64,000 bases of DNA, from contig DASYKG010000082.1 of NCBI GenBank assembly GCA_035995645.1, forward strand, positions 14,205 through 78,204, written 5' to 3'. Shown here in pieces: positions 5,307 to 46,387 of this stretch (position 1 is its first letter; every line of letters starts with the position of its first letter). Below the pieces are notes generated by a model, which ran no database searches, was not told where the DNA came from, and worked only from the letters and a program-made list of their open reading frames with translations. A program made the translations under genes and the position numbers. Source of the DNA: Solirubrobacteraceae bacterium. Lineage in GTDB: Bacteria > Actinomycetota > Thermoleophilia > Solirubrobacterales > Solirubrobacteraceae.

Positions 5307-5954
5307 CTACTGGGCCGTTTGACGCGGCTCGCGCCACATGCGCCACTGCGCGGGCGCGCCGCGCCCGACCGTGAATTCCTCGGTCACGGCGAATCCGTGG
5401 CGTTCGTACAGCGCCCTGTTGCGCGGCGAGGAAGCCTCGAGAAAGGCCGCCACGCGCTCGCGGTCACAGCGCTGCAGGACGGGCGCCAGCAGCGCGCCGC
5501 CGAGCCCGCGGCCCTGCCACGGCGGATCGACGCCGAGGAAAGGCAGGTAGTAGTGCGGGGCGTGAGCCGGCTCGGCAGGGTGCCCGGATTCGAGCACGGT
5601 CAGCGCGCGCAGCACGCGCGGGGAGTGTCGGGCGAAGACCGCGAGCATCGACGGCAGCAGGCGCAGCTGCTCGACGACCCCGTGCTTCCAGCGCCCCGGC
5701 GGCTCCCACACGGCGACCCCGGCGACGCCGGCCGTCGTGAACGTCTGCTGCTCGGCCAGCCACACTCGGCGCAGGAACAGCTCGAAGCCGCGGCTGAGGA
5801 TCTTCATGCGGCGCACGTCGCCGCGCAGCACCCACGTGAAGACGGGATCGTCGAAGAACGCGCGCGCGAGCACGCCGGCCATCGCCGCGGCCTGCGCGTC
5901 GGGCGCCTTGCGCACCGTCGCCGCCTCCTCGCCGGCCGTTGCAATGTCGACCAT
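5307..5954 (-). CDS. GNAT family N-acetyltransferase
   Basis: LARAFFDDP, YYLPFLGVDPPWQGRGLGGALL, LEASSPRNRALYERHGF; GAGGAG SD before ATG 5954. Confidence 0.92.
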   Translation of the reverse strand: MVDIATAGEEAATVRKAPDAQAAAMAGVLARAFFDDPVFTWVLRGDVRRMKILSRGFELFLRRVWLAEQQTFTTAGVAGVAVWEPPGRWKHGVVEQLRLLPSMLAVFARHSPRVLRALTVLESGHPAEPAHAPHYYLPFLGVDPPWQGRGLGGALLAPVLQRCDRERVAAFLEASSPRNRALYERHGFAVTEEFTVGRGAPAQWRMWREPRQTAQ

Positions 5955-5964
5955 CGCAGGCTCC

Positions 5965-6399
5965 TCACGCATCGCGTTCGACAGCCGCCAGCGAGCGCTC
6001 GATCGAGCGCGTCAGCGACGCGCTGACGAGCGGCGCGAGGCCGGGGATCGGCGAGGCGATGCGGATGTCGTAGACGAAGTGCGTTCCGCCGCCGGCGGGT
6101 GTGAACTCCATCGTGCCCACGTGGCCGCGAAGCGGGCTGCCCTTGGTGATGCGATAGACGATGCGCTGCGGCGCGACGAACTCGGTGACCGTCTCCTCAA
6201 ACGGCGGCAGCGGGCCGATCTGCAGCCGGCGCAGCGAGCCGACGCCGTTGCGCTCGCCGTCGCCGTCGCGCAAGCGCGTGATCTTCGCGCCGAACACGGC
6301 GGCGAGGTTCTCGTGCTCGGCGAGGTGGGCGAAGATGCGCTCGGGCGGCTTTGCGAAGTCGTGCTCGATGTGCACATGGCGGGCCCGCACGCAATGCAC
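5965..6399 (-). CDS. SRPBCC family protein (start uncertain)
   Basis: PPERIFAHLAEHENL, GVGSLRRL, EETVTEFVAPQRIVYRI. Confidence 0.8.
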   Translation of the reverse strand: MHCVRARHVHIEHDFAKPPERIFAHLAEHENLAAVFGAKITRLRDGDGERNGVGSLRRLQIGPLPPFEETVTEFVAPQRIVYRITKGSPLRGHVGTMEFTPAGGGTHFVYDIRIASPIPGLAPLVSASLTRSIERSLAAVERDA

Positions 6400-28095: not shown

Positions 28096-28499
28096 TCCAG
28101 CCCCCAGTCTCGACGACCTGTCAGCGCGGCACCATACCTAAAATGGAATAAGTCTGTCTAGTCGAACTTGCTGTGACCGCGCATGGCGGCGACGGGTGCA
28201 CTTAGCTCGTGGCCGGATCCCTGTCGTCACGAATGCTCCCGAGCCCGACGCAAGTAGGTCGCGCCACAGCGTCAGGGGTGCGTCGCAATCTCGCTCTCGC
28301 GTGGGAGGCGTCCGGGTTGCTGCTCAACGAGACGCTCGAGTTGAACGAAAAGCGTGTGAGAGCGATCGTTACCAGCGCCATGAGCGACAAGCTCAGGTGC
28401 TTGCCGGGCAAGTCAGGCGTGCGCGAGGGCGCGCATCTGACTCACCGGGTGACGCCCAAGACGACTCAACGTCGCGTAGGACGAGGCGTGCCCATGCGT

Positions 28500-28717
28500 T
28501 CAGGGCGCGACGCTGACAGGCACGCGACCCGTTAGTCGATCGATCACGCCGCGGCGCAACGGCACCAACAGCAGCCCGGTGTCCTCTCCCCCGAGGACGG
28601 TCGCCTGCCCTTCGAGCTGTTCCTGCGCCGAGTGTGGCTGGCCGAGCAGCCGAGATCATCGTCGCTACGCGACGCCGCCATGAACAGCTCATCAGTCTTG
28701 TCGGTGATCTCGCTCAT
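28500..28717 (-). pseudogene. Small ORF (candidate antitoxin) frameshifted by a 41-bp insert
   Basis: ATG overlaps the upstream TGA (ATGA). Removing 28610-28650 gives an open 58-aa frame MSEITDKTDELF...DDLGQATVLGG...VSVAP. Confidence 0.5.
28610..28650. repeat. 41-bp exact inverted copy of 5747-5787 (inside the GNAT gene)
   Basis: CTTCGAGCTGTTCCTGCGCCGAGTGTGGCTGGCCGAGCAGC is the exact reverse complement of 5747-5787; identity stops on both sides. Confidence 0.95.
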
Positions 28718-29023
28718 TGCACATGCTCCTAGCCATGAACGATATCGCGCCACTCGCGCAGCAGCTTGAGTTCGGCGACGTGCATCACGTCATTTACAGG
28801 ACCATGCGTGACGGTGGGAGATTGCTTCTCCAGGCCGACGTATGCGTGCTCGTGGTGCTCGCCCGGACCGTGGGCATTGTCGAATGTGCGCACCGTGCAC
28901 CAGCGACCGTCCCGCAATACGAGGAGCACGATCGCGTACTCGACCGGGTGCTCGCTCGAACGCTCTACCCACGAGTTGCACGTCGGAACCCAAGAAGCGA
29001 CGTCGAGTCCGGTCCTTCGGCAT
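28714..29023 (-). pseudogene. DUF7718/TumE-like small protein (possible TA toxin) with frameshift and premature stop
   Basis: MPKDRTRRRFLGSDVQLV (+1 G) VERSSEHPVEYAIVLL...RTFDNAHG...HHEH. TAG at 28729 lies four codons before a TGA coupled to the next gene. Family name from memory. Confidence 0.5.
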
Positions 29024-29033
29024 CTTTGAGCCG

Positions 29034-29372
29034 TCACGTCGTCTCTGAGGCGAGCGGTCGGCTGCTACCACCCGACCCAAAGGCCGCCTCCACAAACACC
29101 GACTCGTGCGCGCTCGGCGAGTAGTCCGCGTAGCGCTGCGTCGTTTCGATGTCCCGATGCCCCATCCAGTCCTGCAAGGTCCGCATGGGCACACCAGCGC
29201 CAGCCATCGCCGTACCGAACGTGTGGCGCAGATCGTGGAAGCGATGCGACTGCTCAAGCTGCGCGGCCTTGAGCACCCGGCGGAAGCGGCGCAGGATAGC
29301 CGCCTTGTCGAGCGGCGCCGCCGTGTGAGGATCAGCGAACACGAGAGCATCGCCACTGCTCTCCCCCGCCGC
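29034..29372 (-). pseudogene. Tyrosine integrase B, C-terminal fragment only
   Basis: LVFADP, RFHDLRHTFGT, WMGHRDIETTQRY; no upstream half. Confidence 0.88.
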
Positions 29373-29377
29373 GCGGC

Positions 29378-30169
29378 GCTGGACACCTTCGACGCCGCCG
29401 ACCTGCTCGCGTTCCGCCAGGAGCTCGTCGACGCAAAGCGTGCGCGAGCACGGTCAACCACTACCGCCGCGTCGTCCGCGGCGTCTTCGGAACCAGCCCG
29501 AGCAGCCCTGCGCTCGCCTGGCCCTGGATGACCCACAAGGTCGAGAGCGAGGGCAAGCTGCGCTTCTACACACCCGCGCAGGTCCGCAGGCTGATCGCCA
29601 AGGCCCACACGAACATGGACGCTGCGATCTACACGCTCGCAACCGAGGCTGGGCTGCGTCTGTCGGAGATCCGCGGGCTGAAGGTCGCGAACGTCGACTT
29701 CGAGGTCGGCGTGCTTCGCTTCGAGGACGGCTACACCACCAGCGGCGGGCAGGCCGGCAACAAGGGCAGGCGTGTGCGCTCCGTCCCGATGAGTGCCAAC
29801 GTGAGAGCCGCGCTCTGGCCGTTCTGCAACGGCCGCCCCGCCGAGGCGCTCGTGTTCGAACACGAGCGCAAGCCCGGCGAGCCGATCTGCGGCATCTCGA
29901 TCTGCTGGCGGTTCCTCAGCGCCTCCAAGAAAGCCGGGCTGCCGAAGCTTCGCCTGCACGACCTGCGCCACAGCTTCGGCACCCAGGCGATCCGCGTGTT
30001 CAAGATCCACGAGGTACAGCGGATGATGGGCCACCGCCACATCACCACGACCGAACGCTACCTGCACTACTCGCCCGACCCCGACGGAGCCGCCAAGCTC
30101 AGCGCGCTGTGGGCAGATCCCGGCGGCGGCGAGACAGGGGACGTGGTGCCGCTTCACCGCGCGGCGTGA
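29378..30169 (+). pseudogene. Tyrosine integrase A, N-terminally truncated and frameshifted
   Basis: Catalytic GLRLSEI, LHDLRHSFGT, MGHRHITTTERY; upstream LDTFDAADLLAFRQEL (frameshift) STVNHYRRVVRG; points at tRNA-Cys. Confidence 0.88.
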
Positions 30170-30247
30170 AGACCCGATCGCGTCGCTGGAAGCTGGCGAT
30201 CCGGCCGGCGAACAGGGGAGTGGGGTGAAGGGCCGCCTGGGCCTTAC

Positions 30248-30267
30248 GGGGCGCCTATGGGGCGCCT
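30248..30267 (-). repeat. Candidate integrase arm-binding tandem repeat (tRNA-Cys side)
   Basis: AGGCGCCCCATAGGCGCCCC on the minus strand; 19/20 identical to 46241-46260 on the plus strand. Confidence 0.7.
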
Positions 30268-30339
30268 TGACCGGGGGGCACACACCGGTCGGCAGTGTCA
30301 GCCCCTCTGGATGCCCATGTTTGCAGGCGTTTCTCAAAG

Positions 30340-30410
30340 AGGCGACGACCGGAATCGAACCGGTGTAAACGGCTTTGCAGGCCGCTGCGTAGCCACTCCG
30401 CCACGTCGCC
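30340..30410 (-). tRNA. tRNA-Cys(GCA)
   Basis: GGCGACG/CGTCGCC acceptor stem, GCGGC-CTGCAAA-GCCGT anticodon arm, TTCGATT T-loop; CCA not encoded. Confidence 0.97.
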
Positions 30411-30623
30411 AGAAGCAACGCAAGGGTATCGGGCCGTGCGGGCTCGGCCGAGGTGGCGTCAACGCGTTCGCTGGAGGTCGAGCCGGCCCGGTTTCTTACG
30501 AAGCGAGCTCCTGACCGTTATCAACCTTTTCCGCTTCCGTTAGCGGCGCTTTCGCATCGCGTTAGCGCTCGCACAGCGGCTGGTCGCAGAATGGCGTGAT
30601 CCCGCAACGACCGGAGGTCAGCC

Positions 30624-46344: not shown

Positions 46345-46387
46345 CTGCAAAGCCGTTTACACCGGTTCGATTCCGGTCGTCGCCTCT
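46345..46387 (+). mobile_element. att core: 43-bp duplicate of the tRNA-Cys 3' half, inverted relative to the tRNA
   Basis: CTGCAAAGCCGTTTACACCGGTTCGATTCCGGTCGTCGCCTCT is the reverse complement of 30338-30380. Confidence 0.93.

Follow-up and report, generated by a model that had tools for sequence, protein, structure and literature searches.

A 41-nt inverted copy of an acetyltransferase gene in a soil actinobacterium genome, a probable scar of microhomology-primed templated repair

A short piece of a GNAT acetyltransferase gene in this Solirubrobacteraceae genome recurs, inverted and without a single mismatch, in a small gene of an integrase-associated element, where it has replaced ancestral sequence. 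Our data suggest that this patch is probably the scar of microhomology-primed templated repair, by which a break would have been mended without a homologous partner.

The 41-nt repeat, its donor and its support in the assembly

Within the window (the whole stretch of DNA analysed, 64 kb long and part of contig C82 of the assembly), CTTCGAGCTGTTCCTGCGCCGAGTGTGGCTGGCCGAGCAGC occupies 28610-28650 on the plus strand, and its reverse complement lies 23 kb away at 5747-5787 (41/41 identity). The exact inverted copy described in a first-pass annotation of this DNA is confirmed, and none of the 100 dinucleotide-preserving shuffles in the control for this 41-mer yielded a match. The whole assembly (90 contigs, 2.95 Mb, 69.5% G+C) contains exactly two copies, and no third site in its 90 contigs shares even a 16-mer with the sequence. 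A dispersed repeat, considered at the outset as a competing account, is ruled out by these two occurrences and by a unitig depth equal to two copies.

The 41-mer is also singular in kind. A genome-wide screen for exact repeats (28 nt or longer, flanks dissimilar, contig ends excluded) returned 19 isolated repeats, mostly tRNA 3' fragments (att-type) and tandem repeats. The others included a 34-mer in the starts of two paralogous genes (context checked), a 32-mer in paralogues that falls in a conserved MMPL-type transporter motif (by inspection), and five 28-29-mers. Across the whole assembly, the 41-mer was the sole isolated exact repeat longer than 34 nt that was neither a tRNA fragment nor a tandem repeat, and no second case like it was found among the 19 (the five 28-29-mers set aside). 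Since there is a single such event in the genome, it offers no pattern from which to generalise. A separate small duplication event was observed at C29:9470-9558, where two perfect copies of a 44-nt segment stand 1 base apart (period 45 nt).

The copy at 5747-5787 lies on the minus strand within an intact gene for a 221-aa GNAT acetyltransferase (5307-5972, minus strand; Pfam Acetyltransf_1, E=8e-9), which aligned over its full length with nine homologues from related genomes (41-53% protein identity). There it supplies the codons for (G)FELFLRRVWLAEQ. The encoded motif, FE.F.RRVWL, is kept in the GNAT homologues (GFETFIRRVWL, AFATFMRRVWL and LFEVMLRRVHL in the three closest, with one arginine invariant) and is absent from relatives of the recipient gene. 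Conservation of the motif indicates that the sequence is native to GNAT, and copying therefore ran from the GNAT gene to the small gene, as had been proposed from the window alone.

Independent support for the arrangement came from a public soil run (X1) that contains 99% of the region's sampled words and is probably the source sample. Contigs built independently from X1 at k=31, which are unable to phase both flanks across a 41-nt repeat, contained one 41-nt node with a depth of 37.8 joined to four flanks: two at the recipient locus (depths 16.8 and 17.4) and two at the GNAT locus (22.9 and 20). Each flank contig extends 30 nt into the node without branching, and these depths and unbranched flanks together indicate that the X1 reads contain the junction words at full depth. 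Among the X1 k=31 contigs, none of the ancestral allele, or of any other allele at a likeness of at least 90%, was found, and the derived allele looks fixed in the X1 population. Phasing of the flanks comes from the metagenome-assembled genome (MAG) itself, from its inferred k and from collinearity with relatives: 29 pairs of contig ends in the MAG overlap by exactly 141 nt, pointing to a final k of 141, at which single reads would have spanned the 41-nt repeat, and the donor and recipient loci are both collinear with relatives in the assembled arrangement. With these 141-nt end overlaps, the assembly graph would also allow many of the 90 contigs to be linked.

These observations bear on whether the 41-mer truly lies at 28610-28650 in a real genome. 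An assembly or library artefact might be suspected because the source is a short-read metagenome bin and because the derived junction was found in none of the public runs searched beyond X1. However, both recipient flanks are linked to the 41-mer at full depth, the depth of the node is the sum of two copies with no ancestral-allele contig beside it, the reads spanned the repeat if the final k of the MAG was 141, and both loci are collinear with relatives. We consider the artefact that the first-pass annotation had listed among its options very unlikely.

Replacement at the recipient site

The state of the recipient site before the event can be read from relatives. Our search for the module to which the recipient gene belongs covered 41 genomes, 13 of which, all in the same genus, carry it (the window's own genome included). 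The recipient alignment drew on three of these genomes and on five contigs from metagenome and genome collections, which were recovered by a pattern longer than 19 nt (three of the five are Solirubrobacterales or Solirubrobacteraceae MAGs). The segment between the conserved strings GCCTGCC and CGAGATC is 78 nt long and, a few point differences aside, the same in all eight relatives, and in the window it is the 41-mer; flanks on both sides of the segment are collinear in 8/8. The event had been described as an insertion, and alignment of the recipient with its homologues shows instead a replacement of 78 nt by 41 nt.

The junctions of this replacement can be placed exactly. The ancestral segment consists of CTTCGA, 69 nt and AGC, and that of the window of CTTCGA, 32 nt and AGC, so that 32 donor-only bases (28616-28647) stand in place of 69 ancestral ones. 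The net change of -37 nt entails a frameshift. The patch (28610-28650, plus strand) is identical to the GNAT sense strand and is bounded by a left microhomology of 6 nt (CTTCGA, 28610-28615), common to the donor and the ancestral recipient in seven of eight relatives, and by a right microhomology of 3 nt (AGC, 28648-28650) defined by the alignment with relatives. The match on the right is wider if two mismatches are allowed: over 28641-28650, the ancestral GCCGGGTAGC and the donor GCCGAGCAGC agree at 8/10 positions. The chance frequencies per position in this genome are 4.6e-4 for CTTCGA and 0.026 for AGC. The flanking homology that had been reported as absent is indeed absent on the left (9/27 matches between recipient and donor flanks, no similarity), but the two junction microhomologies had been missed, as they become visible only once the ancestral sequence is known. 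On the right, 15/27 positions agree between recipient 28651-28677 and the donor downstream flank (5720-5746), a weak similarity (post hoc P about 0.004, random genome 27-mers as reference) that may have eased the return of the copied strand.

No target-site duplication was found at the patch, in agreement with the first reading of the site, where a 69-nt deletion is present instead; nor were there terminal inverted repeats or flanking repeats. This configuration bears on CRISPR-type spacer capture, on transposable elements and on reverse-transcriptase systems such as a diversity-generating retroelement. While 41 nt is near the size of a spacer, neither Cas1 nor a reverse transcriptase (RVT_1) gave a hit in the 96%-complete assembly, the sequence has two copies only, and the site shows a deletion in place of a duplication. 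The two copies are identical, with none of the adenine-specific changes of a diversity-generating retroelement. The spacer-like capture suggested earlier thus has no support, and we give this group of explanations next to no credence.

The event is comparatively recent, since the two copies of the 41-mer do not differ at all while the recipient flanks diverge by 9-17% from the sampled relatives. The patch was seen in the window's genome and one run only and was absent in 8/8 relatives. The ancestral form was also present in two soil DNA runs (X2 and X5) and in a contig from a soil metatranscriptome, which has 62 letters between the positions corresponding to 28615 and 28641.

Sequence to the left of the patch is also altered. 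Four differences from the consensus of the relatives fall within 7 nt at 28587-28593, three of them private to the window and confined to 4 nt (28590-28593) and the fourth at 28587, placing the cluster 17-23 nt left of the left junction. The cluster turns TCCTCGCCGACAAGGA into TCCTCTCCCCCGAGGA and thereby lengthens a small inverted repeat from four to five pairs. It may reflect error-prone synthesis near the break or quasi-palindrome correction; a search for a second template for the cluster found only chance-level 12-14-mers.

A decaying element and the antisense reading

The recipient (28413-28717, minus strand) is a pseudogene, the remnant of a 113-aa gene disrupted by the frameshift of the patch and by a private CGA>TGA change at 28500-28502. 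In relative G002 the intact gene encodes MSEITDKTDELFMVASRSDDDLG-YPVDVAFVPSDEEWTDDVLWRNLIE-GQATVL...RALAHA and adjoins an intact integrase gene of 407 aa; the ancestral 113-aa protein had no match in Pfam or NCBIfam. The window's copy has lost the middle 25 codons and its frame is shifted, and the A at position 28502, which turns CGA into TGA, is private to the window (G in all relatives). Outside the patch, the window has 12 private substitutions in about 320 aligned columns (1-11 per relative). Removal of the 41-mer does open a 58-aa frame, as noted in the first-pass annotation, but this frame is not the ancestral gene (78 nt at the site and 113 aa in relatives); since a private TGA ends it and not an ancestral stop, the notion of a restored frame is misleading.

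The neighbouring genes place the recipient in an integrase-associated element, in keeping with its first description as an island ORF. Its upstream partner is a DUF7718-like gene of 102 aa (28729-29037, minus strand), which scores below the Pfam cut-off (21-23 bits versus 25). Upstream of this gene, in turn, is a C-terminal remnant (102 aa; 29034-29342, minus strand) of a tyrosine integrase that has 407 aa in G002. Homology to the G002 integrase ends near 29378, where the remnant abuts a second, oppositely oriented tyrosine integrase (29528-30169, plus strand) that is N-terminally truncated and lies next to the 3' end of a tRNA-Cys gene (30339-30410, minus strand; Rfam match). With its recipient gene reduced to a pseudogene and its integrase cut to 102 of 407 aa, this copy of the element is decaying. 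The tRNA-Cys gene is likely the integration site of an element, and was the only Rfam family found across 28100-30500.

Several further features of the region are recorded here in their own right. The join between the two integrases (29342-29528), which lies 730 nt from the patch, marks a second illegitimate junction. An exact repeat of the final 43 nt of tRNA-Cys (30338-30380) occurs at 46345-46387, 16 kb away and in inverted rather than direct orientation, with a C5 methyltransferase gene on one side and an MMPL transporter gene on the other. In G002, tRNA-Cys, the adjacent ORF and tRNA-Val all point in the same direction, and in the window tRNA-Cys is flipped; one simple inversion relative to G002 was considered and rejected, as it fails to explain the order of the tRNA-Cys, tRNA-Val and protease genes. 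Among the loci compared (L002, L004, L060, L071, L171, L189 and L240), the module of integrase, DUF7718-like gene and 113-aa gene (28400-29340 in the window) shows 80-95% DNA identity across genomes whose GNAT proteins are 40-53% identical. Many soil and peat runs contain it, genome G007 has several copies, and it looks like a small integrative element of Solirubrobacterales that may have been spreading recently.

This genomic setting also bears on the proposal that the patch is a newborn antisense regulator, in which a minus-strand transcript of the DUF7718-like and small genes would down-regulate GNAT and selection would have kept the patch. The geometry of pairing noted in the first-pass annotation is correct: the recipient genes lie on the minus strand and the patch presents GNAT sense sequence on the plus strand, so that a minus-strand transcript through it would be perfectly complementary to 41 nt of the GNAT mRNA (codons 62-75). 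The module may also be transcribed, given that a relative's ancestral copy of the small gene is present in one soil metatranscriptome. Set against this, the patch is confined to this genome and one run and is missing from every relative, it sits in a pseudogene, within a decaying element that has a truncated integrase upstream, and recency by itself would leave the two copies identical. We therefore regard a regulatory role as highly improbable; if it were true, this would be a trans-acting regulator caught at birth, with break repair as one route to such regulators.

Origin of the patch and comparison with known repair systems

The deletion at the site, the exactness of the copy and the microhomologies at its edges make templated synthesis during break repair the best fit among the four options that the first-pass annotation had set out. 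We propose that a double-strand break, or a resection gap, would have removed about 69 nt from the small gene of the already decaying element, and that one 3' end would have paired over a few bases with the GNAT gene, 23 kb away. The priming end could have been the top strand of the left end, through CTTCGA, or the bottom strand of the right end, through the complement of AGC (or of GCCGxGxAGC). After extension by about 32-35 nt on the foreign GNAT template, the end would have come free, annealed by means of the second microhomology to its broken counterpart and been sealed, leaving the 41-nt exact inverted copy, the net loss of 37 nt and the frameshift. Priming from the right end would use as template either the non-transcribed strand of GNAT or GNAT mRNA, and the lack of a reverse transcriptase hit means that an RNA template is not favoured.

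The genome encodes enzymes that could have carried out these steps. Through microhomology, the LigD primase-polymerase bridges DNA ends, which it extends in a templated manner. We found a gene for Ku (175.7 bits) and two LigD primase-polymerase domains (LigD_Prim-Pol, 296 and 294 bits), one of them in an 850-aa ORF about 2 kb from ku, and the Ku/LigD end-joining machinery, rather than another polymerase, may have been the copier. Capture of DNA at a chromosomal break by bacterial NHEJ has been shown experimentally in Sinorhizobium meliloti (PMC6379672). Other scars of illegitimate recombination lie less than 800 nt from the patch, where the integrase truncated near 29378 is fused to the second truncated integrase. 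Against templated end joining stands the location of the template, 23 kb away as opposed to the tens of bases of classical synthesis-dependent MMEJ.

Replicative template switching of the FoSTeS/MMBIR type is the close rival of this account, although we hold it to be rather less likely. A strand from a stalled or collapsed fork would prime on the GNAT locus via CTTCGA, copy about 35 nt and return via the second microhomology, thereby skipping 69 nt. It predicts the same footprint as end joining (a deletion, an inverted templated patch and microhomology at both switches), and the 15/27 similarity on the right flank could have aided the return switch. However, the required template strand is inverted and 23 kb away, too far for a switch within one fork, so that single-stranded DNA at the GNAT locus would be needed in any case. 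No direct evidence favours either process, and the footprint they share cannot be used to separate them from sequence alone.

The patch might also have been captured without copying, if a short double- or single-stranded piece of GNAT DNA, either a degradation product or DNA taken up from a sister cell, had been ligated or annealed into the break. Bacterial NHEJ does insert free DNA fragments into a chromosomal break (PMC6379672), and either orientation would be expected. Yet microhomology at both junctions fits primed synthesis or annealing and is not predicted by blunt capture, and a stable 41-nt fragment is not an obvious intermediate. Sequence alone does not tell copying apart from the ligation of a free fragment, but the paired microhomologies make ligation less likely, and we judge fragment capture improbable.

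If it did arise by microhomology-primed templated repair, as we favour, the patch would be a clean natural example, from an uncultivated soil actinobacterium, of short-patch copying from a distant gene during break repair, and so of use to researchers on bacterial end joining. Eight relatives preserve the ancestral state, which allows an exact reading of the microhomology at both junctions. The patch otherwise appears ordinary: one neutral scar, within a pseudogene, that shows no sign of function. As two perfect 41-nt inverted repeats 23 kb apart, the copies are nevertheless a possible substrate for an inversion that would split the GNAT gene. A screen of isolated exact repeats of 28-60 nt that are not tRNA, tandem or paralogue repeats could test whether such patches are linked to Ku/LigD.

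A close bacterial counterpart is NHEJ by Ku and LigD. This genome carries genes for Ku and the LigD polymerase, the process is mutagenic and yields deletions with added nucleotides, and foreign DNA ends up in the break, as seen in Sinorhizobium meliloti (PMC6379672). The products of Ku/LigD experiments are short fill-ins, non-templated additions or whole cassettes supplied from outside, whereas the patch is a copy of a distant locus; we found no report, in the literature searched, of a 32-41-nt copy taken from a remote site on the chromosome of a wild bacterium.

The patch also resembles the products of MMBIR/FoSTeS, in which switches at 2-6 nt of microhomology give a deletion with an inverted templated segment. 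These processes are usually invoked for larger, complex rearrangements in eukaryotes, whereas here there is one short patch with no change in copy number.

There is a further likeness in form to the templated (filler) insertions of eukaryotes, those of synthesis-dependent MMEJ and those of the polymerase-theta type, a literature that includes work on Agrobacterium T-DNA junctions. The shared traits are a deletion at the site, an exact copy from elsewhere in the genome with either orientation allowed, microhomology of a few bases at each junction and no target-site duplication. Unlike those insertions, the patch occurs in a bacterium, which has no polymerase theta and in which the primase-polymerase domain of LigD is the candidate polymerase, and its template is 23 kb from the break, where theirs would be found within tens of bases. 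In its footprint, the patch belongs to a known class of repair products that is well documented in eukaryotes.
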